Of a DNA stretch of 64,000 nucleotides, positions 50,473-64,000 are shown piece after piece (position 1 is the stretch's first letter; each line of letters begins with the position of its first letter). Where the stretch lies: assembly GCA_044345405.1 (NCBI GenBank), contig JBIJBE010000003.1, forward strand, positions 8,427-72,426. Direction: 5' to 3'. The notes under the pieces were generated by a model that made no database searches, was not told the DNA's origin, and worked only from the letters and a program-made list of their open reading frames with translations. Source of the DNA: Bdellovibrionota bacterium. Lineage in GTDB: Bacteria > Bdellovibrionota_C > UBA2361 > OMII01. Position numbers and translations under genes: made by a program.

Positions 50473-51510
50473 TCACCCCCGCAACACCCCATCCGCCTCA
50501 CGCAACAACGCCTCCGTACTCTCCCACGAGATGCACGCATCGGTGATCGAGACGCCATAGCGAAGGTCTCCCTTCTCAAGGTCCTGGCGTCCTTCATGGA
50601 GGTTGCTCTCGAGCATCCATCCCACGACCGGAGAGTCTCCGGCTTGAATCTGCCCTAAGATATCCTTGAACACCGCTGGTTGGCGGTTGTGATCCTTGTT
50701 TGAGTTGCCGTGACTGCAATCAACTATGATGTTCGGTGTGACGCCGTGCTTCGCCATCAGGCTCGCCGCTGACGCCACGCTCTCTGCATCGTAGTTTGGA
50801 GCCTTACTTCCTCGAAGTACGATATGGCCGTACCTGTTCCCTCGAGTTTGTACCACTGAGCACTGACCGTGCTGGTTAATACCGAGAAAACGGTGAGGAT
50901 GAGCGGCTGACATGATGCCGTTTATCGCGATGAGGACGTTTCCATCCGTTCCGTTCTTGAACCCGACAGGGGAGGAGAGGCCACTCGCCATCTCACGGTG
51001 GGTCTGGCTCTCAACGGTGCGGGCTCCGATCGCGGTCCAGGTGATGAGGTCACCGATGTACTGCGGAACGATCGGATCGAGCGCCTCGGTCGCTATCGGA
51101 AGGCCCACCTCAGCGACGGACATGAGGAGTCGTCGGGCCACGAAGAGCCCCTCTTCAACGTGAAAAGAGTCATCGAGTCGTGGATCGTTAATCAGCCCCT
51201 TCCATCCGGTTGTTGTGCGGGGTTTTTCGAAGTACACGCGCATGACGACGTACATCGTGTCTTTGACCTGATCCGCGAGAACCTTGAGGCGCTTCGCGTA
51301 CTCAAGGGTCGCCTCTGGATCGTACGCCGCGCATGGTCCGACGATGACGAGCTTTCGGTTATCCTTTCGGTCGAGGATCGCCTCGACGATTCGTCGGGAT
51401 TCGGTGATCTGGTCTTCTAGGATCTCTGGTAAGGGTAGGACCGCCTTTACCGCGGCTGGCGTAGGCAAGGTATCGACTGACTCGACGTGAAGATTCTCTG
51501 TGGTAACCAT
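50473..51510 (-). CDS. 3-deoxy-7-phosphoheptulonate (DAHP) synthase, class I-alpha (AroG/F/H-like)
   Basis: Conserved motifs (VVGPCAAYDPEA, KPRTTTGWKG, the GARTVESQTHRE region). 345 aa. Confidence 0.9.
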   Translation of the reverse strand: MVTTENLHVESVDTLPTPAAVKAVLPLPEILEDQITESRRIVEAILDRKDNRKLVIVGPCAAYDPEATLEYAKRLKVLADQVKDTMYVVMRVYFEKPRTTTGWKGLINDPRLDDSFHVEEGLFVARRLLMSVAEVGLPIATEALDPIVPQYIGDLITWTAIGARTVESQTHREMASGLSSPVGFKNGTDGNVLIAINGIMSAAHPHRFLGINQHGQCSVVQTRGNRYGHIVLRGSKAPNYDAESVASAASLMAKHGVTPNIIVDCSHGNSNKDHNRQPAVFKDILGQIQAGDSPVVGWMLESNLHEGRQDLEKGDLRYGVSITDACISWESTEALLREADGVLRG

Positions 51511-51718
51511 ACAACTTGGCCTCTCTGGGGGAGGATGAAGGGAACAATAACGATGTGAAGGAATGAACGATTTTTACCCGCGGAGCGGGAAATAAAAAAA
51601 GAAGCTGACGTAGGATCGCCAAGTGCGGTTCATGCAGCCAGGCTACGGGGGCCGAGCTCGGAAGTCAACAGCAAAGATGTTAGAGGATGCAAAACCCTAA
51701 CACGTCCCTCGCTATCCC

Positions 51719-53161
51719 TTAGTTGATTGAGTTAGTAGCTCCCGACTCGCCGCCATGAACCCTCAGACCGAGCGGTTTCGTTTGGCCGTTTAAAAGTCGT
51801 TGCGCCTCGCTCTCGGTCCACTGCTTCGTTTGAGAGAAGTAGTGCGCCATGATGTTTTCAGGGGTGCTTCTATTCATCAAGATATTGCGCACCGCGAAAA
51901 CCAGGGGAGCGGATGCTTCGCTGGTCGTGTTGTTTTGAATCCGTCGTGCCATCGCGTGAGCAGCGAATACCCCCTCGGCGGTGAGAAGGTGCCCGTTTTC
52001 GTCAGGCTTTGTCAGAATGTCGTAGATATTCTCTCCCATCGCTAGCCGCATGCCAGCTTGAACGTTGCGGCTCGTGAGGCTATTTACGGTGAGATTCAGG
52101 TCATGGTTTCCGACCATCATGAGCTGAGCGCCTTTTCCTCCACCCTCCGATTTGACCAGATTCACGATCTCACGGCTCGCGAAGTGTACGAGGCGATGAA
52201 GCGTATGCGTGTCGAGACTAGCCTTGTGCTCTCCATGGCTAATGTCTACTCGCTTCGTTATGCGGAAGAGCCCATCTGAGCCTACTTGAAGCGCCCCGTT
52301 TTTTCGCAGAATACCGAGAACGATACCACCGGCGAACGCCGCTACGTTCTTCATGGACGCCGCAAGTTCGAGGGCTGTGGGATTATTGTAGATCTCAAGG
52401 TTCTTGTCGCCGCTCATGCCACTGAAAACGAAGAACGCCTTAGCGACCGCGTCGGTGGCGTGAGGACTGCGGTTTTTAGCGCCGCCGAGCGTGAGTCCGA
52501 GGTATGCTCCGTCCTTGACGTCCTTGGCGAAGCCCGGACCGCCGACGAACACGAGGTTGTCCTTGACCTCACTCCACTGTGGGTGTTGTCGGATGTATTC
52601 AAGCGGGGTAAGGGCTCGAGAACCCTCCGGAGGTCCCTCACGGAGCGATTTCTCTGAGGAAAGGGGATCCCAGTCCGGCACGATAAGCCCCTTGGCGAAG
52701 CTTATAACGACGCTCTCTTTGTGCGGCCGGATCTGTGAGAGTACGTTTGGAAACGCGTTGGAGGGAACGGCCAACATAATAATACCGCGACCATCGAGCG
52801 CTTTTGAGAGGTCGTTGGTGACCATGTCACTCGTAGGATGTGACTCTGATTTGCGGGCCCATGGAAGGACGTCGAAGCTTTCGGCAAGGCGGTGATGGAG
52901 GGCTTCTCCGTACACTCCATAGCCTACCATGGCGATCTTTGAGTGGAACTCAGCTCGCTGCCCTGGGCTAAGTTGCCCCTGGAAGTTTGTAACCGGTGTA
53001 TCAATGTCGATTGACCGGAGGGATCCTCTTGGAGAAAAGGTGGTGTTGAGGCCGGGTACCTCCGCTGCTGAGAGGTCTTGGCGTTGGCCTGGTTGTGCTG
53101 TTCGATCGTCAGACACGCGATACTCCTTGAAAATCTCGTGACTCGACCCAAAAGGTATCAA
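51719..53161 (-). CDS. Divergent, extended NAD(P)H-dependent glycerol-3-phosphate dehydrogenase (GpsA)-like protein (480 aa)
   Basis: N-terminal Rossmann segment (KIAMVGYGVYGEALHHRLAE ... IIMLAVPSNAF ... VVISFAKGL) and a C-terminal segment (ELAASMKNVAAFAGGI) resembling GpsA. It carries ~70 extra aa at each end. Confidence 0.45.
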   Translation of the reverse strand: MIPFGSSHEIFKEYRVSDDRTAQPGQRQDLSAAEVPGLNTTFSPRGSLRSIDIDTPVTNFQGQLSPGQRAEFHSKIAMVGYGVYGEALHHRLAESFDVLPWARKSESHPTSDMVTNDLSKALDGRGIIMLAVPSNAFPNVLSQIRPHKESVVISFAKGLIVPDWDPLSSEKSLREGPPEGSRALTPLEYIRQHPQWSEVKDNLVFVGGPGFAKDVKDGAYLGLTLGGAKNRSPHATDAVAKAFFVFSGMSGDKNLEIYNNPTALELAASMKNVAAFAGGIVLGILRKNGALQVGSDGLFRITKRVDISHGEHKASLDTHTLHRLVHFASREIVNLVKSEGGGKGAQLMMVGNHDLNLTVNSLTSRNVQAGMRLAMGENIYDILTKPDENGHLLTAEGVFAAHAMARRIQNNTTSEASAPLVFAVRNILMNRSTPENIMAHYFSQTKQWTESEAQRLLNGQTKPLGLRVHGGESGATNSIN

Positions 53162-53431
53162 CTAAACAGACCTTTTGCATTCGAGATGGTGTTAATATTC
53201 TGTGAGGTCGTTGTGAGGCCAGGTTTGAGAGTAAGATTAACAAAAGATTAACGATCGACCGGTCCGAGGGACTGACTTAGGTGCGGGTATTGGGTAAGAT
53301 CCCCCCAACAATAACCGTAAGTACAATAGATTCATGAGTGGTATATGATTAGCGCAGTGTGTGCAGAAACGAACTCTTCCAATCTAAAACGAACCGTTGA
53401 TTCGGTTTCCCGTTCGACTCTCCTTTCCTCC

Positions 53432-54997
53432 ATGGCGAACGCGGGTGTCTACGACATGGTGGTCGTCGGCGGTGGTATCCACGGAGCCGCAGTCGCCCGA
53501 CTCGCCGCTGGCTACGGATTTAAAACAGCTCTTCTGGAAAAGCATGATTACGCCGCCGCTACCTCAAGCCGAAGCTCCAAGATGGCGCACGGTGGCCTTC
53601 GCTACCTTGAGCTTATGGACTTCGAGCAGGTCTTTGAGGGGATTAAGGCTCGTGAAGAGATGTTTGATCATGTCGGCAACCTCGTGAAGCCGGCCGAGTT
53701 CCTCATCCCAGTTCCGAGAGGGGCGTGGTTCTTCAAGCTCAAATTGGGGATCGGACTCTTCCTCTACGACCTTATGGTTAGTAAGGGTAATCGGCGTCAT
53801 CGATGGATACCTCGCTCGAAGCTTACCTTCCCAGGATTCCACAGCGGTAGAGAGGACCTCATGGGGTGCTTCGTCTACACAGATGGCATCATGAGTGACG
53901 CTCGTCTCGTTATCGACAACGTGATCGGGGCGCGTCGGTACGGAGCCGCTTGTCTCAATTACTGTGAAGTAAAATCCATGACTCGGGACGAGTCGGGTAT
54001 CTCGGAGGTAACGGCGGTCGATACCAAGAGTGGTAAGGAGATTAAGCTGAAAGCTCGCCTGGTGGTGAATTGCACAGGGCCTTGGGCCTCAACGTTAGCG
54101 ACCACCCTCGGTGCGGAATCCCGTCCTCTTAAATTTAGCCGCGGTTCTCACATTATATTCAATAAGCCGTGGACGGGCCCAAGTCTCTTCCTTCCAATGC
54201 CAGGAAAGGCTCGGTACTACTTCGTATGGCCGCATCATGCGGGCACGATGGTAGGGACGACTGAGCGTGAGGTTTCCTCCGTTGAACTTGATCCCCTTCC
54301 TTCCAAGGATGAGATTGAGGAGATCTTTGGTCGTCTTGAGAAGGATATTCCCGACGCGGGGCTCAACCGGGAAAGCGCTTGTTACGCATTCGCTGGTATT
54401 CGAACCCTTCCGATTCGTGGAAAGGACGCTAACTCCACAGTGCTCTCCAGAAAGCATATCTGGACTCATGTTAATGGTGTTCTTACCTTGTTAGGAGGCA
54501 AATACACCACCGCTTCTTGGACCGCGCTTGAGGGTGTAAAGGAGGCCGCGCAGATTTTGGGCAAGCCGATCTCGGCGGACGCTCTCAAGAGTCGCGTCGA
54601 TCTCAAAGAACTCCCCGGCAGCGCGACCGATGTTGAGTGTGAGGAGCTTCAACGTTCGCTCGCGACTCATGGCGTGTCCATCGAATCACAAAACCGACTT
54701 ATGGGGCGGTATGGTAAGCGGCTCGGCGATAACTATCTCGAGGCGGTGGAAGCTTCTCAAGAGAAATTGATCGAGCTTGAAACGATGATCGCGCTCGATA
54801 CCGAGCAGGTCGAGAGCCTTGAGGATCTCATGCGTCGACGACTTGAGCTTGAGTATACCGAGGGGCATGGAGAGAAGTATCTCCCCATCATCGGCGAGGT
54901 ATTTAAGCGCGTCCGACCTGACATTGATTTCGAGAAAGAGAGCGCCGCCTATATCGCTCGAATGAAAGCGGTTCGATCGCTCCTTGGAAAAGCGTAG
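53432..54997 (+). CDS. glpD: FAD-dependent glycerol-3-phosphate dehydrogenase (GlpD/GlpA family). The six-frame ORF is open from 53345, but the ATG at 53432 places the FAD dinucleotide fold at the N-terminus.
   Basis: DMVVVGGGIHGAAVARLAAGYGFKTALLEK FAD-binding fold, a DAO domain and a C-terminal GlpD-type domain. Confidence 0.8.
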   Translation: MANAGVYDMVVVGGGIHGAAVARLAAGYGFKTALLEKHDYAAATSSRSSKMAHGGLRYLELMDFEQVFEGIKAREEMFDHVGNLVKPAEFLIPVPRGAWFFKLKLGIGLFLYDLMVSKGNRRHRWIPRSKLTFPGFHSGREDLMGCFVYTDGIMSDARLVIDNVIGARRYGAACLNYCEVKSMTRDESGISEVTAVDTKSGKEIKLKARLVVNCTGPWASTLATTLGAESRPLKFSRGSHIIFNKPWTGPSLFLPMPGKARYYFVWPHHAGTMVGTTEREVSSVELDPLPSKDEIEEIFGRLEKDIPDAGLNRESACYAFAGIRTLPIRGKDANSTVLSRKHIWTHVNGVLTLLGGKYTTASWTALEGVKEAAQILGKPISADALKSRVDLKELPGSATDVECEELQRSLATHGVSIESQNRLMGRYGKRLGDNYLEAVEASQEKLIELETMIALDTEQVESLEDLMRRRLELEYTEGHGEKYLPIIGEVFKRVRPDIDFEKESAAYIARMKAVRSLLGKA

Positions 54998-55265
54998 CGG
55001 ATTGACTCCTAAAGAACGGTCGTGAGGTTCTCTGCGGGGAGGGGATGAATGATGATTCCTCTCCGTCGCTGAGTAGCCGTTGGCTGCTCCTAAAAGTACC
55101 GCGTAGCCGACACTCTCTCGTGTCGGTTTGGGTTGCAATTGGGACGTAGTAGTCACTACCGATACCGCGTCGCGTAGCCCTATGCTACCGTGCGTTTATT
55201 AAACCCAAAACTAACAGTGCCGGTTTGAGTATGATCGGCTTGCTCTGATACCGTGTGCAAACTTC

Positions 55266-56225
55266 ATGAATTCCGGTCGGGATTCAGATTGTTGTTCGAA
55301 TGAAGTTTGCGAGATTGACATGAAGATTGGGCAGCCAGGCCGGGCACCGGCAACAGATGCTATAGGAGATATGATGACACAAGGGACAGTAGCCCTCTCA
55401 TCTCAAGGATGTAAACCTGAAGTTACGACTGATGTAGCACCCATCTTGGAGAAAAAAGCTTTTCTCTTCGATTTTGACGGGACAGTGTGGATGGGCGGCA
55501 CCATGATTCCCGGAGTCGCTGAGACGATCAAAGAGCTTCGCCAAGCGGGGAAGCAACCTATTTACCTCACCAATAATTCATCCAAATCGCGCGCCGAGTA
55601 TTTTGAGCGTCTTCAGAAGCTCGGACTCTGCGCGGACCCGAACGAGATCGTGATGTCGACGGATACCGTTACGACGTACTTGAAGCAACATGGGTTCGCG
55701 AGCGCGTACATCATGGGCACTCCAGCTATGCGAGAGATGTGCGCTGAGGCGGGAGTTGTTCATGAGGAGAATCCAGCCAAGGTCGCGGTAGCGGTCATTG
55801 GATTCGACCGCACCTCAACGGCGGAAAAACTCACAACAGTGGCTCGTCTCGTCGCGAAGGGAGTCCCGTACATCGTCGCGCATCCGGATCCATTCTGTCC
55901 GAGCGATGAGGGTCCGATCGTCGATTGTGGCGCGTACTACGCGTGCATCAAGACCACAACGGGAGTTGAGGCGAAGGCTGTTCTCGGAAAGCCAAGCGCC
56001 TCAATGATAGCGGAAGTCGAGAAGCGCTTCTCGTTCGATCGCTCTGACATGGTGGTTCTCGGCGATCGTCTTTACACGGATGTCGCGTTGGGTCGAGAGG
56101 CCGGCGTTGACTCTGTGCTTGTGTTATCAGGTGAGAACACCCTTGAGCACGCCGCTGTGAGTAATGAGAAGCCCACCTGGATTCTCAACTCAGTGGCTGA
56201 TCTTCGATTCAAGATAGCGAAGTAA
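55266..56225 (+). CDS. HAD-superfamily subfamily IIA hydrolase (NagD/CUT1-like sugar or nucleotide phosphatase). The true start may be internal.
   Basis: Motif I FLFDFDGTVW, the TNNSSKSRAEYFERL segment typical of HAD-IIA, and a C-terminal GD motif (VVLGDRLYTDV). Confidence 0.65.
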   Translation: MNSGRDSDCCSNEVCEIDMKIGQPGRAPATDAIGDMMTQGTVALSSQGCKPEVTTDVAPILEKKAFLFDFDGTVWMGGTMIPGVAETIKELRQAGKQPIYLTNNSSKSRAEYFERLQKLGLCADPNEIVMSTDTVTTYLKQHGFASAYIMGTPAMREMCAEAGVVHEENPAKVAVAVIGFDRTSTAEKLTTVARLVAKGVPYIVAHPDPFCPSDEGPIVDCGAYYACIKTTTGVEAKAVLGKPSASMIAEVEKRFSFDRSDMVVLGDRLYTDVALGREAGVDSVLVLSGENTLEHAAVSNEKPTWILNSVADLRFKIAK

Positions 56226-56265
56226 ACACAGTACGCTGCCTGATTTAGTAGTAAGGAGAAAAGGC

Positions 56266-58209
56266 ATGGACGCGCATTCAGCAGTTATACGTGAAACTCG
56301 TAAAGAGGTGGATCCTCAATCGCAAGCTTGTGGGGTTCGTCTCCCAGGCCAGGCGAATCGAGAGGCGTACCTCCGCTCCTTAGCGGCTGGAACGGTGCCC
56401 CCAATGGTGGTGATGAGCGGGTTGCCAGGGGCTGGAAAGACCACGGCCCTTCAATTCCTCCAACAGGAGGGTTCGGCCACCTACACACCGGTGACTCGGT
56501 ATATGCCGCGAGATCGTCGTCCGAGTGATACCGCGGGCGATAAGCCGTGGAGCTTCGATAAAAACGCCGCGCCGGGTGAGGACCCAACGGCTCCAGGATC
56601 GGTCATTTTCTCGAACGTAAAGTACAAGGGGTACTACGGATTTCCGGGGCGTGACATCGTGAACGCGATCGACAAGGGAGAGATCCCTGTGATGCTCGTG
56701 ACAAGCTACGTCGAAATGGTTCAGCTCTCAGAGGCGTTGCACAACCTCGTTCCGGCAGCGCCGCTCGTGAGCCTACGTCTTGAGGTTCCTCAAGAGGTTC
56801 TTCCCGGACGTATTCTGCGAAGGGTAGGAGCGGACGCGACAGAGCACCAAGAGCGAATCGAGCGCCTCGACGGCTTAGTGAAGGCCGATCGCCTTCAAAC
56901 TCCGCTCTTGAACAAGGTCCACGATACGCGAGTTATCTGGAACTTGAAGCCAAGCGAGATAGCGGAGCACGGTTATTTTGGCTCTCAAATAAAAGCTCTC
57001 ACACCGGACGCTCTCGCCGCTATGCTTGTAGAGGCTAAAGTTGACGCGGTTGCTCGAGCGCAGCGAGAGGCTCAAGACATCCTCACACCGAGGCCGTTAA
57101 CGTACGATAGCGCGGTCGTTCCAGCTTCTATCACGGATGTATTGGATAGGGTGCTTCTGCCAGCAGCCGCGGCGCGATTAGCTGATGGGGCGTTGGGGCA
57201 GGGTGAGAGTCCGCTTGTCCTTAAGGCGGGTTTGGCCGCAGCCATCTATTTGGGAGACAAGGGACGAGTGGTTTCTCCTGACATCGATTTCGTTCTTCCG
57301 GAAAATCCGAGAGCGAAGATGCAAATGGAGGTCCTGATGGAGTCCTTGTCCGATCAGCCCGTGGAATGGGTTGATGGCAAGAACAAGGCCGTCTACCACT
57401 GCGAGGGAATTAAGGGCGAGGCGAAGGCGAACGATGGTACGAACGTTGAGCTTGACGCGTTGCTCAGCACTCGGGTTCAGCCTGATCCGAAGGGATTCGT
57501 GTTCGCCTGTACGCATGACGCTCACGACCTCTTCTACCGAAGAATGGTTACGACCCCGGCCGGAAACTCGGTGGCGATGATCCCGCCAGAGCAGCTCTGT
57601 GTCGAGAAATTAATCGCTGGTCGAGGGCCGGATATTAATAAGTTTGACCTGTTTGACGCGAGCGGACTCCTCGCCACCTTTCACCTCAATCCGAACCTCG
57701 TGAAAAAGATGATCGAGTCGCAACGTTTTGACGAGGCTCTCGATGAGGACGCCGCGCGCGTAATCTCGACGGCGAAGCGACAGCTATCTGACGAGGCGCT
57801 TACGCAGCTCGGAATCACGGAGCCGGAGGTGCAAGCTGTGGTGAGATCTCTTGGGGAGTTGGTCGACGATGAGTGGGCCGAGTATCCATCCGAAACTCGC
57901 GTTTTGACGAAGTCTGCTCTGAAGCAGTTCGCGTTCTTGAGCGCCGTAGAACGCTCTCTCAAGAAAGTAGAGGCGATCATGAACGACAGGGTTTTCTCCA
58001 TCGCCGGAGAGAAGGTGTCGATCGGTGAGCGCTTTGGAGAGGATAACGTCCGAGCTGGGATCGCCCGGTTGCGAGCGCACGTACGGCTGCACAGTGAGTT
58101 TTACGCCGGGACGCGTGATACCTTCGTGAGACGGGCTCTCGGAAAACAGGAAGACGAGACCCGATTCTTCCAGCATCTCGATAGTCAGCGTCAGCGTCTC
58201 TCTCGCTAG
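56266..58209 (+). CDS. Large (647 aa) protein with an N-terminal guanylate-kinase-like P-loop domain and a central segment resembling a Pol-beta-type nucleotidyltransferase
   Basis: P-loop SGLPGAGKTT, then GK-like segments (TPVTRYMPRDRRPSD...W-F and FSNVKYKGYYGFPG). The central GLAAAIYLGDKGRVVSPDIDFVL fits the NTase pattern G-x9-13-D-x-D. The ~300-aa C-terminal helical region has no match. Confidence 0.45.
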   Translation: MDAHSAVIRETRKEVDPQSQACGVRLPGQANREAYLRSLAAGTVPPMVVMSGLPGAGKTTALQFLQQEGSATYTPVTRYMPRDRRPSDTAGDKPWSFDKNAAPGEDPTAPGSVIFSNVKYKGYYGFPGRDIVNAIDKGEIPVMLVTSYVEMVQLSEALHNLVPAAPLVSLRLEVPQEVLPGRILRRVGADATEHQERIERLDGLVKADRLQTPLLNKVHDTRVIWNLKPSEIAEHGYFGSQIKALTPDALAAMLVEAKVDAVARAQREAQDILTPRPLTYDSAVVPASITDVLDRVLLPAAAARLADGALGQGESPLVLKAGLAAAIYLGDKGRVVSPDIDFVLPENPRAKMQMEVLMESLSDQPVEWVDGKNKAVYHCEGIKGEAKANDGTNVELDALLSTRVQPDPKGFVFACTHDAHDLFYRRMVTTPAGNSVAMIPPEQLCVEKLIAGRGPDINKFDLFDASGLLATFHLNPNLVKKMIESQRFDEALDEDAARVISTAKRQLSDEALTQLGITEPEVQAVVRSLGELVDDEWAEYPSETRVLTKSALKQFAFLSAVERSLKKVEAIMNDRVFSIAGEKVSIGERFGEDNVRAGIARLRAHVRLHSEFYAGTRDTFVRRALGKQEDETRFFQHLDSQRQRLSR

Positions 58210-58308
58210 GCGAGCCTCGCTGAAGCCCATAGAGGCTTTATAGGGAGATATGGGATACTCACGTGAGTCCCGTTCTCCTTGTAAGGTGGCTGGGGCTATC
58301 GGTAAGGT

Positions 58309-59106
58309 TTAGTGAGAGAACGTCGCGGGATCTCCACCTCGTACATCAACAGATACCTTTTCTCCCTCTACAGTTACTATCGTGTAACTCTTACTCGGCG
58401 TGCCGGTATTCGACACGTCCTCTACGCATGATTGAAGGGTGAAGTACGGGATGCCGTTGTGGGTCCACATATTGTTTCGATGGAGGTGGCCGTTGAAAAC
58501 CGCGATTACCTTGCCGCTCGCCTCAAGAACTGCTCGAACCTCGGCGCGATTCTCCACGAACGCTTTGTGCGGAGTTCCCTCAAACCAAAAGCACCCGGTA
58601 AGGTCTTGATCGCTGATGGGATGGTGCATGAACACAAGGGTTTTGCGCTTTGTGCTCGCGAGGTCCGCCGCAAGCCACTCAATCTGATCAGCTTCAATGA
58701 TCATACGAGAATGGTTGAAGTGTCGGGTGTACAGAAACACACAGTGGTAGTCGCCCACATCAAAGGAGTAGTGGAGCTTCTCACGGTGTAACAGCGCGCA
58801 GAGGTCCTCATACGTTAAGTTCTCTCGGTCGTGGTTGCCGACGGTGTGATGAACGGGAGCCTTGAATTTCCCGAAGTAAAAGAGAGCTCTCTTAAAATTT
58901 TCCCGGTCAAATTCTACGCTGGGATACCTGAGATCGTCCTGACTGATGTCTCCGAGTTGCGCGATGAACTCTACGTCGTTTTGGTTATTGAGGGTCTCCA
59001 CGAGTTCGGTGATAACGCGCTCAGATTCGAAACTCATGATACGATTGTTGCCCCGATAGAATGGGGTCGGGCCGATGTGACTATCTGTGATGATCGCGAA
59101 TTTCAT
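58309..59106 (-). CDS. Calcineurin-like metallophosphoesterase
   Basis: MPP motifs (ITDSHIG, the QLGDIS GDxxD/R box, VGNHD, the GHLH segment). Confidence 0.7.
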   Translation of the reverse strand: MKFAIITDSHIGPTPFYRGNNRIMSFESERVITELVETLNNQNDVEFIAQLGDISQDDLRYPSVEFDRENFKRALFYFGKFKAPVHHTVGNHDRENLTYEDLCALLHREKLHYSFDVGDYHCVFLYTRHFNHSRMIIEADQIEWLAADLASTKRKTLVFMHHPISDQDLTGCFWFEGTPHKAFVENRAEVRAVLEASGKVIAVFNGHLHRNNMWTHNGIPYFTLQSCVEDVSNTGTPSKSYTIVTVEGEKVSVDVRGGDPATFSH

Positions 59107-59261
59107 GAATTCTCTCCTAGAGGGGTGTCGCCGGCGAGTCTAATCAATACCGTTGCCTCTCGCAATAAAGGCCGGCCGGCGTCTGAATACACGGACATGG
59201 TCTTCGACGAGCGATGAGAAGAAAGTGCTCTGGGTGCCGGCATATCGGGCACAATTTCCCG

Positions 59262-60338
59262 CTATGACACGAGCCGTTGTGGATAGCTGATTCGTTTAAG
59301 AGTTTCGAATTGTTGAATAATTTTGACCGAGTCGATGGCGGGGCCAAAGGTGTCGTAGAGAGACTGGCAGAAGGTGTCCAACTCTCGACTGTTCTCCGTC
59401 TCAAAGCGTAGTTCGAAGTCCCAGTTTCCGGTACACGAGATCGCCGCCACAACGTTCGGACAGAGGGCTATCATTTTATAGAGAAGCTTTTTTTGATCCG
59501 GACTCATTCCTCGGTCCACGAGGAGAAGACGGTAGGTTTGCACGCCGATCTTGTCGGTTCGAAGTACGTATATTTTGCCCCGAATAATTCGCTGTTCGGT
59601 GAGTTTGTCTATTCGGTATTGAATGGAGCTCGCGCTCATAGCCATGGCGCGAGCTATCCCTTGGAGAGACGTGTCAGGATTGCCGCTCAAAAATTCGAGG
59701 ATTCTCCCATCTGTATCGTCTAAGGCTCGTACGGGAGTTTTCGATGTAAGGTGAATACTCTCTCTCTTGTGAGAGGATGGCGAGAGATAGAGAGGATTAA
59801 AAACACTCCAATCGATCGCAATTCGAACCGTTTTCTCGAAATGGGCGCCGGCCTCCGCCGGTCTCAGGAGTGTAAATAACTCATCGACTTCATGTATCTG
59901 TTGAGCCCACAACCACAGCATATACCGGTAGCCGCCACCCATTCGGTTTAATCCCATGACGCGGGAATGGGTCATAACCGTTTTTTCTAAACGCTTTTGG
60001 CCAGCGGAGCTCTCGGCTCCTCGATTAAAAAAAGTGGTAACGTCGAGGTATCCGAGAGCGAAGTGATCGATATGATAGATGGGAGTGATTATGCCACGAC
60101 GAAGAAGCGAGTCTCTCGCGTGTCGGGTGGCGTGCTGACTCAGACCGGATCTTCGAGCCAGCTCCTTCACAGAGTCGTCCGCGTTCAATACATTCGCGGC
60201 AAGGAAAATCCTTTCTTTGTCCGATAATCTGCTATGACTCTGCATCCGGTAGGATATAGCAGGAAGTGAGGGTGTGAGGCGAGTGGAATCATACTCCGCA
60301 CGGTCTGATGGGAATGTTCCGAAATCATGTAATGTCAC
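59262..60338 (-). CDS. Tandem Lrp/AsnC-like (HTH_AsnC plus RAM-like) two-module protein. It may be a siroheme-decarboxylase (AhbAB/NirDL)-like enzyme or a regulator.
   Basis: Two successive wHTH+RAM-like modules (DKERIFLAANVLNADDSVKELARRSGLS..., DGRILEFLSGNPDTSLQGIARAMAMS...). Confidence 0.45.
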   Translation of the reverse strand: MTLHDFGTFPSDRAEYDSTRLTPSLPAISYRMQSHSRLSDKERIFLAANVLNADDSVKELARRSGLSQHATRHARDSLLRRGIITPIYHIDHFALGYLDVTTFFNRGAESSAGQKRLEKTVMTHSRVMGLNRMGGGYRYMLWLWAQQIHEVDELFTLLRPAEAGAHFEKTVRIAIDWSVFNPLYLSPSSHKRESIHLTSKTPVRALDDTDGRILEFLSGNPDTSLQGIARAMAMSASSIQYRIDKLTEQRIIRGKIYVLRTDKIGVQTYRLLLVDRGMSPDQKKLLYKMIALCPNVVAAISCTGNWDFELRFETENSRELDTFCQSLYDTFGPAIDSVKIIQQFETLKRISYPQRLVS

Positions 60339-60586
60339 CTGTGCGTTACGTGTAGAGCGAGGGGGCGCGCGGTGTCTGAGATAAAGCGGGCGTCCACGGC
60401 GGTCTGGTATCGCGGTATCTCCTTCGAGTGGAAGACGGGCGATAACGGGCGATGCTCTAACTAAATTCTAGTCATTCCTGGCCAACTAAGTGTTTGCGCG
60501 TCTCGTGGGGTGTCGTATTTTCTTGCCCACGCTGTCCTTCGGACGCTGATGAATCGATGTTCACAGGTAGAATACAAGAGGAGTCC

Positions 60587-61789
60587 ATGGATAGAGTAGA
60601 TCGTACGCAGTCGTGTCGGTACGGTGAGATTGTTGATCTGGAGCGTGCTACCCTACCGGGAGCGTTTCGCCCGGCGATAAAGGGGCTCTCCGTTTCTGTC
60701 GAGCAGTTGCCCCACTATGTTGAGGAATCGCTAGCAATTGTAGGCTCGCGCTCAAGGAAAGACATCGAGATATTCCGAAATCTTCTGACAATCAAAGTGC
60801 CTGTGGAGTCCCTTCTTCAAGAGGTCGCCGCTAGCTCTGATGTTTCTATTTCAGAAATACCCGCCGCGTTGTGTCGGATCTGCAACGCGTGGGTTGAGGT
60901 CGCGCCCCAGCATGATGTCGCCGCCCGAATGCCCATCTCTTACGTGGTGGGAAGGCTCGTTGACCTTTGGGTGTCTCATCGTGACGCGAATCTGTCAGAT
61001 GACGAGCGTCGCACCATTCCGTCAAATGAGGCAACACGGGAGGGCTTTGTGAAGAACGACCTTACCGCTAAAGCTCTCTTTGACGCGATAAGTCGGTTAA
61101 GCGCTCCAGCTATGCTTGCCGCTGGCTCCATCGCGCAGCGAAGAGTAGAGCGAATCGGACGGGTAACGATGATAGGTCAGGACCCGTTTAAGGTTTTCTT
61201 CGATACACTTTTTGTCTTTGATCCAGAAAAGGCGAACGTCAACAAGTCGACATCAGAACAGTTTATTCCCTATCTGTGGTCTCGTCTCGAGGCCCGTTGG
61301 TTGGGGTCCGATCGAAAGAGGTGTGAGGATAAGGCTGTTCGATCCGTCAGGGGACGTGAAGGAGAGCTTACCGACATGGCCTCGATGCTGGAGGACAAAG
61401 GGGCACGCGACTTTACGGCATCCGTAGATCGTCGGGATGAGTTCGAGTGGACACGCGCCGCGCTTGAAAACGCGTTGGTAGATGGCGCTTTACGCCGCGG
61501 TGATTATGAAGCTATCCTTCAGTATTTTGGTCTAGGCGGTGCCCAAACAGGGCATGGAGCGCTGAAAAGTTCCGCTCTCTCCATAAAGACGAAGGCTCAA
61601 CGGGGAATCGATCATTTTAAGCGCTACCTCAAGGCCCAAGAGGCCGAGCGTGATGATATCGAATGCCTGTCTTCACAACCGGGTGATTGTGAGACCTTTG
61701 CTCGTTATCCAAAACTCTCTGGAGCTGGTTCTCATCCTAGGCTCATGAGGCGAGCGGAGCAGCGGGCGCAACGTCCAACTGTTTGGTAG
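60587..61789 (+). CDS. Hypothetical protein (about 400 aa from the ATG at 60587 with an AGAGGAG RBS; the six-frame ORF is open from 60494). A 5'-truncated paralogue begins at 63613.
   Basis: A long ORF. Nucleotides ~60961-61350 are ~85-90% identical to 63613-64000. Confidence 0.45.
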   Translation: MDRVDRTQSCRYGEIVDLERATLPGAFRPAIKGLSVSVEQLPHYVEESLAIVGSRSRKDIEIFRNLLTIKVPVESLLQEVAASSDVSISEIPAALCRICNAWVEVAPQHDVAARMPISYVVGRLVDLWVSHRDANLSDDERRTIPSNEATREGFVKNDLTAKALFDAISRLSAPAMLAAGSIAQRRVERIGRVTMIGQDPFKVFFDTLFVFDPEKANVNKSTSEQFIPYLWSRLEARWLGSDRKRCEDKAVRSVRGREGELTDMASMLEDKGARDFTASVDRRDEFEWTRAALENALVDGALRRGDYEAILQYFGLGGAQTGHGALKSSALSIKTKAQRGIDHFKRYLKAQEAERDDIECLSSQPGDCETFARYPKLSGAGSHPRLMRRAEQRAQRPTVW

Positions 61790-61972: not shown

Positions 61973-62230
61973 TCAGTCCCGCTCAAAAAGCATCTGCTGT
62001 CGCTTCGGCTTGATCTGCACCGGCATTCCCGCGGGATAATTTCCAGAGAAGCAAGCGTCGCAATATTTACCATGGGTTGACTCAACGGCGCGGTAGAGCC
62101 CCTCGGTTGAGAGGTAGGCGAGGGAGTCAACACCTATGTACTCCGCGATCTCCTCAATGGTGTGCTTGGAGGCGATAAGCTCGTGCTTATCGGGGGTATC
62201 GATACCGTAGTAGCACGGGTTCTTCGTCAC
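61973..62230 (-). pseudogene. purF: 3' remnant of amidophosphoribosyltransferase (purF), C-terminal ~85 aa only. It is truncated where the REP array begins.
   Basis: PurF C-terminal signature GIDTPDKHELIASKHTIEEIAEYIGVDSLAYLS...CDACFSGNYP (the 4Fe-4S Cys ligands). No upstream PurF sequence exists, since the fragment runs straight into the tandem repeats at 62223. Confidence 0.6.
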
Positions 62231-62387
62231 TGGTGCCAGGCTCTTTTTAAGCGTTTCGTCACTGGTTCGTCACTGGTGCCAGGCTCTTTCTGGTTCGTCA
62301 CTGGTGCCAGGCTCTTTTTAAGCTGCTCGTCACTGGTGCCAGGCTCTTTTTAAGCGTTTTCGTCACTGGTGCCAGGCTCTTTTTAAG
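62223..62387. repeat. Tandem array of five full copies plus one partial copy of a 29-32-bp REP-like unit (TCGTCACTGGTGCCAGGCTCTTTTTAAGC)
   Basis: Directly visible direct repeats. An inverted single copy (GAGCCTGGCACCAGTGAC) lies at 63591-63608 on the far side of the transposase gene. Confidence 0.9.
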
Positions 62388-62420
62388 CAACTCTCTGCCC
62401 CGTTCCCCGATTACACCTGC

Positions 62421-63395
62421 ATGCGTAATCCAAGATTTCTCGTTCCCGGAAAGATACACTTCATCACCTTTCGAACTGAGGAGGGGCTTCCGTTTGTCCC
62501 TCTGCGATTCATGAATATTCTTATTCGGTCCGCCCTCGCCAGAGCCCAAAAGCTCTACCCTGTTAAAATCATCTGCTTTGTTGTTCAGGCTAACCACGTA
62601 CACCTTCTCGTACGGGTGACAAACCCTCAGGATGTTTCGAGCTTTATCGGGTACTTCAAAGCGGAGAGTGCTCACTACCTCAACCGTCTCCTCAACCGAC
62701 GACAACGAACTGTTTGGGCTCCACGTTTCGACAGTCCTGCCGTGTTGGACATAGACAAAGCTCTTGAACTATTCGCCTACTGCTCCCTAAATCCCGTAAA
62801 AGACGGACTAGTTGCGTCAATGCGGGAGTATCCTGGGCTTAGCTCATACCCGTATCTCCTGAGAGGAGAACAGGTAATCCCTGCGAAATCGATCCCAAGA
62901 GATAAAGTTCGCCCATTAGCGGATCCAACTAATCCCCAACGAGAGAACAAGAGCCTGTCTGAATATTTCAGCTCCGATGATTTCCAAGACCTTTCTATTA
63001 CACTCGCCCCGGAAGAGCTTCGACTAGCATTTCCATCAACCAAGGCCTCTACCGCGGAGGAGTTTCATAAAACGCTTCTACAAACCATCTCCAAGTACGA
63101 GCAGATTTATCTCGCTGACCAGGCTGGAGCAGCGCCACTCGGAGTCCCCAAGCTTCTCGCGATCTCCCTCCTTGCTCAACGGAATCCTCCCATCAAAGGT
63201 AGGAAAATGATCTGTCTCTCTTGTTGCAACGACCTTCGCCAGGCGTTCATATCATCATTCAGGCACATAAAAGCGCTGTGCCGGGAAGCCTTCATGAAGT
63301 GGAGCGCCGGACTCATGGTGCCTTATCCGCCCGGGATGTTCGCTCCCCATCCCCCTAGGATCGCGAATTTCATTCCTCAGACTAACTTCTCATAA
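62421..63395 (+). CDS. REP-associated tyrosine transposase (RAYT; IS200/IS605-like Y1 HUH transposase), 324 aa
   Basis: HUH motif NHVHLLV, the catalytic-Tyr region and the RAYT-specific Y-x-x-x-NPVKDGLV motif (FAYCSLNPVKDGLV). The gene is flanked by REP copies in inverted orientation. Confidence 0.7.
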   Translation: MRNPRFLVPGKIHFITFRTEEGLPFVPLRFMNILIRSALARAQKLYPVKIICFVVQANHVHLLVRVTNPQDVSSFIGYFKAESAHYLNRLLNRRQRTVWAPRFDSPAVLDIDKALELFAYCSLNPVKDGLVASMREYPGLSSYPYLLRGEQVIPAKSIPRDKVRPLADPTNPQRENKSLSEYFSSDDFQDLSITLAPEELRLAFPSTKASTAEEFHKTLLQTISKYEQIYLADQAGAAPLGVPKLLAISLLAQRNPPIKGRKMICLSCCNDLRQAFISSFRHIKALCREAFMKWSAGLMVPYPPGMFAPHPPRIANFIPQTNFS

Positions 63396-63612
63396 GACTC
63401 TGACTTCACAGTTAACAGCGCACGCGACCCCGTTGTTCCGCTAACTCATAGTGAACAAGAGATCACGTGGCTCCTTCTGGCCAAGAGCCAAAGTTATAGA
63501 CAAAGAATGCGTGGACCGCAGCTCTAGAGCTGCAGCCTTATGGGGGCAAAAAACAAGCGCCTGACCGCATGGTAAAGCAAGGAAAGCAAGGAGCCTGGCA
63601 CCAGTGACAACG

Positions 63613-64000
63613 ACCTTTGGGTGTCTCATCGTGACGCTAATCTGTCAGACGACGAGCGTCGCACCATTCCGTCAAATGAGGCAACACGGGAGGGCTTTGT
63701 GAAGAACGACCTTACCGCTAAAGCTCTCTTTGACGCGATAAGCCGGTTAAGCGCTCCAGCTATGCTTGCCGCTGGCGCTCTCGCGCAGCGAAAAGTTGAA
63801 CGGCTCGGTCGGGTCGCGATGATGGATCAGGACCCGTTCAAGGTTTTCTTCGATACCCTATTTGTCTTTGATCCTGAAAAAGCGAACATAAACAAATCGA
63901 CCTCGGAGCAGTTCATCCCCTACCTATGGGCTCGACTGGAGGCTCGTTGGTTAGAGTCAGATAAGCGCCGCTGTGAGGCTACGGCTGTTCGCACCGCGAA
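63613..64000 (+). CDS. 5'-truncated paralogue of the 60587-61789 gene (partial, runs off the window). It may be a pseudogene or a gene fragment.
   Basis: The in-frame translation DLWVSHRDANLSDDERRTIPSNEATREGFVKNDLTAKALFDAISRLSAPAMLAAG... is ~85% identical to residues ~125 onward of the first copy. Homology starts immediately after the inverted REP. Confidence 0.5.

Follow-up and report, generated by a model that had tools for sequence, protein, structure and literature searches.

The kinase-nucleotidyltransferase gene and its locus

We analyzed a 64,000-nucleotide stretch of a Bdellovibrionota bacterium genome (contig JBIJBE010000003.1, positions 8,427 to 72,426, assembly GCA_044345405.1), hereafter called the window, and in it a gene for a 647-amino-acid (aa) protein that joins an N-terminal kinase domain to a nucleotidyltransferase (NTase) module. 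The kinase-NTase protein is a real fusion and is read here as a bifunctional enzyme; its family is very small and had not been described before. An earlier reading of the window, referred to here as the original prediction, had combined this gene with those of a flanking HAD-IIA phosphatase and a metallophosphoesterase (MPE) in a three-gene module. From sequence comparison across related loci, the module is redrawn here as an esterase plus the kinase-NTase protein inside a cluster of GpsA-like and GlpD-like glycerol-3-phosphate dehydrogenase genes (Table 1).

The four open reading frames (ORFs) described in the original prediction lie where it had placed them, and the peptides that it quoted are present in the translation of the 647-aa protein: GAGKTT at residues 54-59, TRYMPRDRRPSD at residues 77-88, FSNVKYKGYYGFPG at residues 115-128, and GLAAAIYLGDKGRVVSPDIDFVL at residues 322-344. 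It had also correctly called a guanylate kinase (GK)-like P-loop, a Pol-beta-type NTase with an Asp triad, a HAD-IIA phosphatase, a calcineurin-like esterase, and an AsnC-like regulator. The HAD ORF ends 40 nt upstream of the kinase-NTase gene and is read in the same direction. The kinase-NTase gene and that of the downstream esterase, MPE_b, converge with 99 nt between them, and the AsnC-like gene lies upstream of MPE_b and is co-directional with it. On the other side of the HAD ORF, the GlpD-like gene is divergent from the GpsA-like gene.

Table 1. Genes and protein domains at the kinase-NTase locus, in window coordinates
Feature	Coordinates	Strand	Evidence
GpsA-like NAD-dependent glycerol-3-phosphate dehydrogenase, long form, 480 aa	51719-53161	-	Pfam NAD_Gly3P_dh_N and NAD_Gly3P_dh_C
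GlpD-like FAD-dependent glycerol-3-phosphate dehydrogenase, 550 aa	53345-54997	+	Pfam DAO and DAO_C
HAD-IIA phosphatase (NagD/PGP-type, capped), 319-aa ORF	55266-56225	+	TIGR01460
Kinase-NTase protein (GKNT), 647 aa, complete ORF	56266-58209	+	ORF, homologues, and AF2 model
GK-fold P-loop phosphotransferase domain, residues ~41-245	56386-57000	+	Foldseek and motifs
Two long linker helices between kinase and NTase, residues ~246-310	57001-57195	+	DSSP on model
DUF1814 (MenT/AbiEii)-type NTase core, residues ~311-470	57196-57675	+	Motifs
Helical C-terminal lobe with family-specific insertions, residues ~471-647	57676-58206	+	Foldseek to MenT3/MenT4
Metallophosphoesterase MPE_b, 265 aa	58309-59106	-	PF00149 and metal-binding motifs
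Tandem Lrp/AsnC-like regulator, 358 aa	59262-60338	-	HTH_24 and AsnC_trans_reg
hyp431, 431-aa ORF, divergent from the AsnC-like gene	60494-61789	+	

The two domains of the 647-aa protein

No Pfam family matched the 647-aa protein above threshold. An AlphaFold model (AF2) built on 15 homologues reached a pLDDT of 88 and a pTM of 0.89. When the kinase domain was compared with the PDB by Foldseek, the top 50 matches were guanylate kinases only, with E values down to 1.7e-7 and TM scores on the target of up to 0.76. The domain has the GK fold with its P-loop, nucleoside monophosphate (NMP)-binding, and LID parts, and the P-loop pattern G-x-x-G-x-G-K-[TS] is conserved. At the level of sequence families, the NCBIfam guanylate kinase model (PRK14737) gave 24.8 bits (E value of 1.6e-5) against a cutoff of 318, the window protein had no match to Pfam Guanylate_kin (PF00625), and an N-terminal profile searched against the PDB returned P-loop-level matches and one Gmk at an E value of 0.0013.

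In alignment A1 and in both types of the cassette described below, several kinase motifs were invariant, namely, the P-loop GLPGAGKTT (residues 52-60), PR82..R85..D88...D92..W95 (residues 81-95), which parallels TTR.PR..E....Y of Gmk, Y120.GYYGF126 (residues 120-126), and the LID arginines R182, R186, and R197. Fold, P-loop, arginine motif, Y.G.YYG-like motif, and LID arginines are thus alike in Gmk/GUK1 and in this domain, which differs from Gmk in its fusion to an NTase and in scores far under the family cutoff. The guanine-reading positions of Gmk (Glu and Ser/Thr flanking the Y-G motif) are presumably occupied here by the invariant F115 and F126, as placed by a manual alignment of the motifs; the tool alignment of the domain to mouse Gmk spans residues 45-106 only. 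Because invariant phenylalanines seem to take these positions and the phosphate-binding and LID arginines are kept, the substrate would be NMP-like rather than GMP. By family score the domain is not a guanylate kinase, and by its specificity residues it is probably not one either. We read it as an active phosphotransferase that takes some phosphomonoester but not GMP. The GK family also includes the related enzyme PhnN, which forms phosphoribosyl pyrophosphate from ribose-1,5-bisphosphate.

The kinase domain is followed by the linker helices (residues 247-273 and 287-308) and by the NTase module. The nearest structures to this module, found by two methods, were MenT1, MenT3/TglT, and MenT4, and the model of residues 272-647 was aligned by Foldseek over ~350 columns to MenT3 and MenT4 (288-292 aa). 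The module has the two-lobed Pol-beta-type NTase fold of MenT1, MenT3, and MenT4, with D339, D341, and D397 as its invariant acidic residues, and it belongs to the DUF1814 superfamily (AbiEii/MenT; PF08843) by fold, motifs, and profile homology. The original prediction had called a minimal nucleotidyltransferase and had named a central segment without the Pol-beta fold and Asp triad as grounds for refutation; the segment has both, so the NTase assignment stood, and the class was revised to the MenT/AbiEii type. It had also reported no match for the C-terminal ~300 residues, and this was not borne out, because the last ~180 residues align as the DUF1814 helical lobe. The supposedly unmatched C-terminus is for the most part this second lobe of the fold, and the invariant residues in it include K553, G615, D618, and R623.

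The core motifs of the module are K-[AG]-G-L-A, R334..S337-x-D339-x-D341, and E395-L-D397, followed in the motif IV region by E442-K448-L-x-A-G-R453-G...K459-F-D461-L-F-D464. For the definition of the catalytic motifs, familiar AbiEii motifs were used beside a published set. All elements of the DUF1814 set, that is, G-[GA], R-x(1,2)-[ST]-x-D-x-D, a third acidic residue, and the motif IV pattern K...R...K/R-D..D, were found, with the definition taken from previous work (PMC11375011). In a divergent alignment of 16 sequences and in all loci, G322, R334, S337, D339, D341, D397, K448, R453, K459, D461, and D464 were invariant, even at 25-30% identity. S337 is at the position of the Ser/Thr that is auto-phosphorylated in MenT toxins (PMC11375011).

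The window protein itself did not match Pfam AbiEii, and weak matches under the threshold were obtained for 3 of 15 and 8 of 39 relatives. The C-terminal module had no sequence match in the PDB even at an E value of 10 and none in Pfam. A comparison by hhalign related the NTase module to stand-alone relatives at 99.8%, and 15 of these 25 stand-alone proteins match Pfam AbiEii. The module is acidic, with an isoelectric point of 4.9 (family median, 5.4); the stand-alone AbiEii-like relatives are equally mixed in this property, so it does not discriminate. The antibiotic-resistance NTases ANT(2'')-Ia and LnuA are much smaller, single-domain proteins without the DUF1814 motif IV lobe. A polyol-phosphate transferase of the LicD/FKRP type, considered in view of the glycerol-phosphate context, was rejected since its Foldseek E values (0.06-0.1) were no better than those of generic Pol-beta matches.

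Family members, partner genes, and cassette exchange

A word-indexed search of 5.8 billion proteins yielded 15 homologues, all of them unnamed. When 1.84 billion representatives were searched exhaustively with an HMM of the NTase module, 84 were recovered, comprising ~40 proteins of 540-720 aa that share the full architecture, ~25 stand-alone NTases of 215-260 aa, and a remainder of fragments and one spurious repeat protein. A gene-fusion or frameshift artefact was rejected as the origin of the 647-aa gene because ~40 representatives have the identical architecture. Named genomes that carry the gene (for example, GCA_041739515.1, GCA_964435675.1, and GCA_964443985.1) are metagenome-assembled genomes labelled Bdellovibrionota, Pseudomonadota, or simply "bacterium," and come from fresh and estuarine water. 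No relatives were found on plasmids or in phages by tblastn or on viral contigs by a pattern scan. Scanning metagenomes with the 16-sequence alignment gave two loci, one of which was a duplicate, leaving one new partial locus; a 39-sequence alignment had no stretch conserved enough for such a search. In alignment A5, every NTase motif is present in three distant members (P0029, P0031, and P0033) that no longer have a Walker A P-loop or GK-like motifs, which indicates that the NTase is the indispensable activity and that the kinase can become a pseudo-enzyme. The view of the original prediction that this kinase-NTase combination is not a characterized family was supported: there is no Pfam or PADLOC model for it, and the library of papers that was searched contained none describing the architecture, either by joining DUF1814 with guanylate kinase or by joining these genes with Bdellovibrionota.

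We then compared the gene neighborhoods of 13 independent main-clade loci, including that of the window. A phosphoesterase gene directly adjoins the kinase-NTase gene in all 13, and the fold of the phosphoesterase varies. In each of the six type-1 loci (the window, L001, L004, L009, L010, and L012), the HAD-IIA gene is found directly upstream and is read in the same direction; it is restricted to the clade with >48% identity. A CpdA-like MPE termed MPE_a (~90-96 bits) adjoins in L005, L006, L007, L010, and L017, MPE_b adjoins in three loci (the window, L017, and L015), and an ApaH/PrpE-like MPE that also weakly matches the Pnkp phosphatase domain adjoins in L008. SpdA-like MPE is also among the esterase types in the main-clade loci, and an untyped MPE adjoins the gene on contig P0015. 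To our knowledge, every partner esterase family is known for nucleotide substrates, and the variation looks like non-orthologous displacement of one function. The exact trio proposed as a three-gene module is thus not conserved, with the HAD confined to one clade and MPE_b to three loci; what persists is some phosphoesterase gene beside the kinase-NTase gene.

The original prediction had left out the most constant partners. The long-form GpsA-like gene, which is the most constant neighbor, is adjacent in 11 of the 13 loci, and the GlpD-like gene is adjacent in 10. This linkage persists where identity between lineages has dropped to 48-55% for the GlpD-like and 24-34% for the GpsA-like proteins. 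The order and orientation of the module genes are rearranged across lineages with adjacency kept, and the flanks outside the module genes differ wholly, with nothing in common. Genes are co-directional in L010 (gaps of 17, 82, and 26 nt) and on contig P0015 (gaps of 37 and 27 nt). The L005/L014 locus additionally carries a glycerate kinase and an FGGY (glycerol-kinase-type) kinase. In L001 (18001-21791) and on contig P0015, genes for the polyphosphate kinase Ppk1 and for Ppx/GppA were observed at a distance of up to 6-8 kb from the kinase-NTase gene; the kinase-NTase proteins of these two lineages are 61% and 30% identical to that of the window, respectively, and ~31% identical to each other. 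No AbiEi/MenA-like antitoxin gene (AbiEi/COG5340) was present in any of the 13 loci. PADLOC gave no match for the HAD, kinase-NTase, MPE, or hyp431 proteins and only generic winged helix-turn-helix (HTH) matches for the AsnC-like protein, and we saw nothing that ties the main clade to mobile elements. Among distant members (27-30% identity), one adjoins an MBL-fold gene that is RNase Z/cNMP-phosphodiesterase-like, with TraC-like and TIM genes near, another stands alone near TraG, and another is located beside a PGM/PMM gene.

Both dehydrogenases at the locus score below the cutoffs of their NCBIfam models. Canonical GpsA has ~330 aa. The GpsA-like protein of the window carries an N-terminal extension of ~75 aa and an internal insert, and scored 77.8 bits against NCBIfam GpsA models with a cutoff of 257. 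Its close homologues are scarce (24 clusters, every one of 460-490 aa), and it may be a specialized paralogue rather than a housekeeping enzyme. The N-terminal extension was observed to be rich in Ser, Thr, and Pro. The GlpD-like protein scored 225.8 bits against NCBIfam glycerol-3-phosphate dehydrogenase, under the cutoff of 360. Separately, contig P0110 carries a GpsA-like gene with 70% identity, flanked by a gene for a 580-aa protein without a Pfam match. At 2-9 kb from the GlpD-like/GpsA-like pair, this contig has a cluster of genes for another GpsA-like protein (563 aa), a metallophosphoesterase, a CTP_transf_like (cytidylyltransferase-type) protein, and a 1,047-aa Sulfatase-family protein, and the cluster may serve to activate or transfer glycerophosphate.

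Capped HAD-IIA phosphatases normally take small substrates. The HAD ORF belongs to this subfamily with 139.9 bits against the TIGR01460 cutoff of 100.15, and its translation contains the DxD nucleophile motif as FDFDGT. It scored 152.8 bits with PGP_euk and was below the cutoffs of the equivalog models (PGP and NagD). Its best PDB match was TM1742 (1vjr; NagD/TM1742 type) at 2e-50, and glycerol-3-phosphate phosphatases (7po7 and 4i9f) were matched at ~1e-23. The true start of the gene is probably the ATG at 55320, which gives 301 aa, because homologues have 298-305 aa and alignments open at residues 19-27. MPE_b scored 46.9 bits against PF00149 (cutoff of 21.5) and is a member of the superfamily only, since its scores with SpdA (58 bits; cutoff of 400) and CpdA (43 bits; cutoff of 225) show no more than a weak likeness to class III cyclic-nucleotide phosphodiesterases. 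Its translation holds the full metal-binding set (DSH, GD, GNHD, HH, and GHLH), no sequence match to it was found in the PDB, and its orthologues in L017 and L015 are 66% and 40% identical.

The AsnC-like protein had been described as a tandem Lrp/AsnC-like regulator. Its C-terminal half fits this description (HTH_24 and AsnC_trans_reg at residues 206-328), and its N-terminal half contains only a weak HTH at residues 32-71. The protein is probably a tandem in which the first copy is degenerate, and it is a candidate local regulator. Orthologues adjoin the kinase-NTase gene only in close relatives, namely, L006 and L017 (68-69%) and L009 (40%). In L009, two back-to-back paralogous tandem AsnC-like genes (11976-14095; 40% and 28% identical to that of the window) were observed directly downstream of the HAD and kinase-NTase genes. 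The hyp431 protein had no Pfam, NCBIfam, or PADLOC match, and its gene is kept at the same position in L017 with 69% identity. Rfam searches revealed no riboswitch or other RNA in the whole window at the gathering threshold or in 53000-60700 at an E value of ≤1. A promoter and terminator scan of 51500-60700 gave counts not above those of shuffled sequence and was not used.

Comparison with a very close relative, L017, pointed to cassette exchange at a fixed glycerol-3-phosphate locus. The two loci are collinear, with identities of 97% for OEP, 93% for the GlpD-like protein, 92% for DAHP synthase, and 89% for the GpsA-like protein. However, the HAD and kinase-NTase genes of the window (55005-58300) are replaced in L017 (5064-8071) by a divergent MPE_a gene and a kinase-NTase gene whose product is only 34% identical. 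L006 (8890-11866) has the same arrangement as L017, and the GlpD-like protein is 89-93% identical in both relatives. The tree of the kinase-NTase proteins is incongruent with those of the GlpD-like and GpsA-like proteins: the kinase-NTase proteins of L017 and L006 are closest to the one in the distant lineage L007 (60-61% identity), although the GlpD-like and GpsA-like proteins of L007 reach only 49% and 34% identity, respectively. The identities of MPE_a and the kinase-NTase protein track each other between loci (59 versus 60%, 86 versus 83%, and 37 versus 36%). Because of this tracking and because the cassette was swapped whole, the esterase and the enzyme are taken to be one unit, which is passed on and now and then exchanged as a whole and which has been kept at the glycerol-3-phosphate locus.

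Two further observations concern the right side of the locus. After the cassette, the genes for MPE_b, the AsnC-like protein, and hyp431 follow in both genomes (window, 58309-61789; L017, 1529-4953) with 66-69% identity, compared with 89-97% for the left-flank genes; either this right flank evolves fast or it belongs to the recombined tract. Farther on, five ~33-nt tandem REP-like repeats (TTCGTCACTGGTGCCAGGCTCTTTTTAAGC) at 62223-62402 sit just upstream of a gene, at 62421-63395, for a REP-associated tyrosine transposase (RAYT; NF047646; 80.7 bits against a cutoff of 80). A 300-nt direct repeat with 91% identity (60962-61261 and 63612-63911) duplicates part of hyp431 across RAYT, and an 85-aa ORF on the minus strand between the repeats (61973-62230) corresponds to the C-terminal end of PurF only (95% to the purF end in L017). 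The RAYT region is either a local rearrangement or an assembly chimera.

Candidate functions of the module

Judged from sequence and predicted structure, the most plausible part of the original prediction is that the module synthesizes and degrades a modified nucleotide or signal. We tentatively favor, at somewhat less than even confidence, a small-molecule pathway that writes and erases a nucleotide and is tied to the glycerol-3-phosphate (G3P) node, rather than a toxin-antitoxin or phage defense system. In such a pathway, the kinase domain would phosphorylate an NMP-like phosphomonoester other than GMP. The NTase domain would then move an NMP from a nucleoside triphosphate to an acceptor, which could be the kinase product or a G3P-derived compound, to give a nucleotide-containing phosphodiester or anhydride, and the neighboring esterase would hydrolyze this product or its precursor. 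In the window, the HAD-IIA protein would be the dedicated phosphoesterase of the unit, with the second esterase encoded convergently downstream, and coupling to the node of G3P and dihydroxyacetone phosphate would take place at the metabolite level. A more specific version is a doubtful possibility, namely, that the family is a new class of bifunctional enzyme whose GK-like kinase and MenT-like NTase work in series on a small molecule and that the product, a new nucleotide-linked metabolite or signal, controls or feeds the GpsA/GlpD node and is erased by the paired esterase. Conceivable products are a dinucleoside polyphosphate and a conjugate of a nucleotide with glycerol phosphate.

A small-molecule substrate is favored because the partner is a capped HAD-IIA phosphatase whose relatives include NagD-type proteins and glycerol-3-phosphate phosphatases and because the kinase has the closed NMP-kinase fold. 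Coupling through a metabolite is easier to envisage than protein-protein contact because a xenologous cassette was swapped and the GlpD-like (93%) and GpsA-like (89%) proteins stayed. Several known systems follow a kinase plus NTase logic, such as HldE with GmhB (ADP-heptose), CobU, NadR, and CoA synthase. The analogy is one of logic only: here, too, kinase and NTase are united in a single protein, and the gene of a dedicated HAD phosphatase adjoins theirs in a metabolic operon. In contrast, these systems use ribokinase or HIGH-type NTases, which are unrelated to the GK and DUF1814 folds, and the esterase partner of the present enzyme can also be a phosphodiesterase-type MPE. The toxin or defense module offered in the original prediction is not supported: no antitoxin, PADLOC match, or phage, plasmid, or viral relative was found, and the operon-like association with metabolic genes is stable over deep divergence.

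Several points weigh against a small-molecule pathway at the G3P node. The mapping of the guanine-reading residues depends on a manual alignment, the type-1 locus L009 has the HAD and kinase-NTase genes with no GpsA or GlpD genes nearby, and the clusters contain no conserved transferase that would consume an activated glycerol-phosphate. The partner of one distant member is an RNase Z-like esterase, conjugation genes are found near distant members, and conflict systems, too, typically show the replacement of cassettes among close relatives. The MenT phospho-acceptor serine is conserved as S337, which fits a MenT-like regulatory logic. In addition, the characterized structural neighbors (MenT1, MenT3, MenT4, and AbiEii) all act on tRNA rather than on small molecules (PMC7450476, PMC10435456).

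These neighbors, MenT1, MenT3 (TglT, Rv1045), and MenT4 of Mycobacterium tuberculosis and AbiEii of Streptococcus agalactiae, are DUF1814 NTase toxins, and the 647-aa protein could likewise be an RNA enzyme; this is the main rival to the small-molecule pathway, although we consider it rather unlikely. The NTase would extend the 3' ends of tRNA or other RNA, the kinase would control it in cis (for example, at Ser337), and the esterase would reset it all, either by taking the phosphate off the enzyme or by shortening the RNA, giving a self-contained toxin or growth-control switch. Besides the structural matches, the segment R-x-x-S-x-D-x-D keeps the Ser/Thr that MenT toxins auto-phosphorylate (PMC11375011). 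Such an enzyme would also suit the RNase Z-like partner of one distant member, the ApaH/PPP/Pnkp-like partner in another locus, the exchange of the cassette between distant lineages, and the TraG/TraC-like genes near distant members. However, the partner in the clade of the window is a capped HAD-IIA phosphatase, the operon-like linkage to GpsA-like and GlpD-like genes is stable across deep divergence, and neither a PADLOC match nor plasmid, phage, or viral relatives were found. Compared with MenT and AbiEii, the 647-aa protein has an additional N-terminal GK-like kinase of ~270 aa and insertions in the helical lobe, and its gene neighbors are phosphoesterases and glycerol-3-phosphate dehydrogenases. 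Because an AbiEi/MenA-type antitoxin gene is absent, it falls outside the operational definition of a MenAT/AbiE toxin-antitoxin system. Moreover, no GK-fold kinase is known to act on protein or RNA.

An improbable alternative is covalent regulation, in which the enzyme would nucleotidylylate, phosphorylate, or modify in both ways one of the dehydrogenases, either the GlpD-like or the GpsA-like protein (the latter, for example, on its Ser/Thr-rich N-terminal extension), with the esterase as the eraser of the mark. The logic resembles that of GlnE, AceK, and PpsR, which are encoded beside their targets. The persistent adjacency to both dehydrogenase genes fits it, as do the ~75-aa extension and the fast evolution of the GpsA-like protein (24-34% between lineages). 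However, between relatives whose putative targets are 89-93% identical, the cassette has been exchanged for one with another esterase and an enzyme of only 34% identity, some family members have no GpsA-like or GlpD-like neighbors, and no known protein-AMPylating NTase was among the top structural matches.

RNA end healing in the manner of Pnkp is very improbable. The kinase would act on 5'-OH ends, the HAD or MPE would remove a 3'-phosphate or 2',3'-cyclic phosphate, and the NTase would rebuild the 3' end. The combination of a P-loop kinase, a nucleotidyl-transferring domain, and interchangeable HAD and MPE phosphoesterases mirrors T4 Pnk and bacterial Pnkp (PMC2190708), the L008 esterase weakly matches the Pnkp phosphatase domain, and a 2H/LigT-like gene lies ~5 kb away on contig P0015. 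However, the kinase is GK-like rather than PNK-like, the NTase is of the DUF1814 type and not ligase-like (KxDG) as in Pnkp, the HAD is a capped IIA enzyme and not a capless one as in PNK, and the esterase is encoded by a separate gene. No Hen1, ligase, RtcB, or methyltransferase gene was seen as a partner, and the linkage to glycerol-3-phosphate genes would be left unexplained.

Least probable is that there is no functional module and that an orphan enzyme lies in the inherited gene order of one bacterial lineage; the main-clade loci do all come from related uncultured aquatic bacteria and distant family members have other neighbors, but deep lineages share the module genes only, adjacency survived rearrangement, esterase and enzyme co-vary, and a cassette that arrived by a separate transfer came to lie at the very same place.

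The kinase-NTase family is small, with clear limits, has both active sites intact by motif, and is restricted to a few uncultured aquatic bacteria. The DUF1814 NTases characterized so far are tRNA toxins held by antitoxins, and here such an NTase is found with a kinase-like fusion and an esterase partner instead. If kinase and NTase do act in series on a small molecule, a MenT/AbiEii fold known only from tRNA-targeting toxins would have been recruited into core metabolism. If the substrate is tRNA, the system would represent self-regulated, antitoxin-free control of translation linked to lipid-precursor metabolism. If it is a small molecule, the enzyme would widen the chemistry of the MenT fold and would bring to light a nucleotide-type metabolite or signal, new to science, where glycolysis and lipid synthesis branch.

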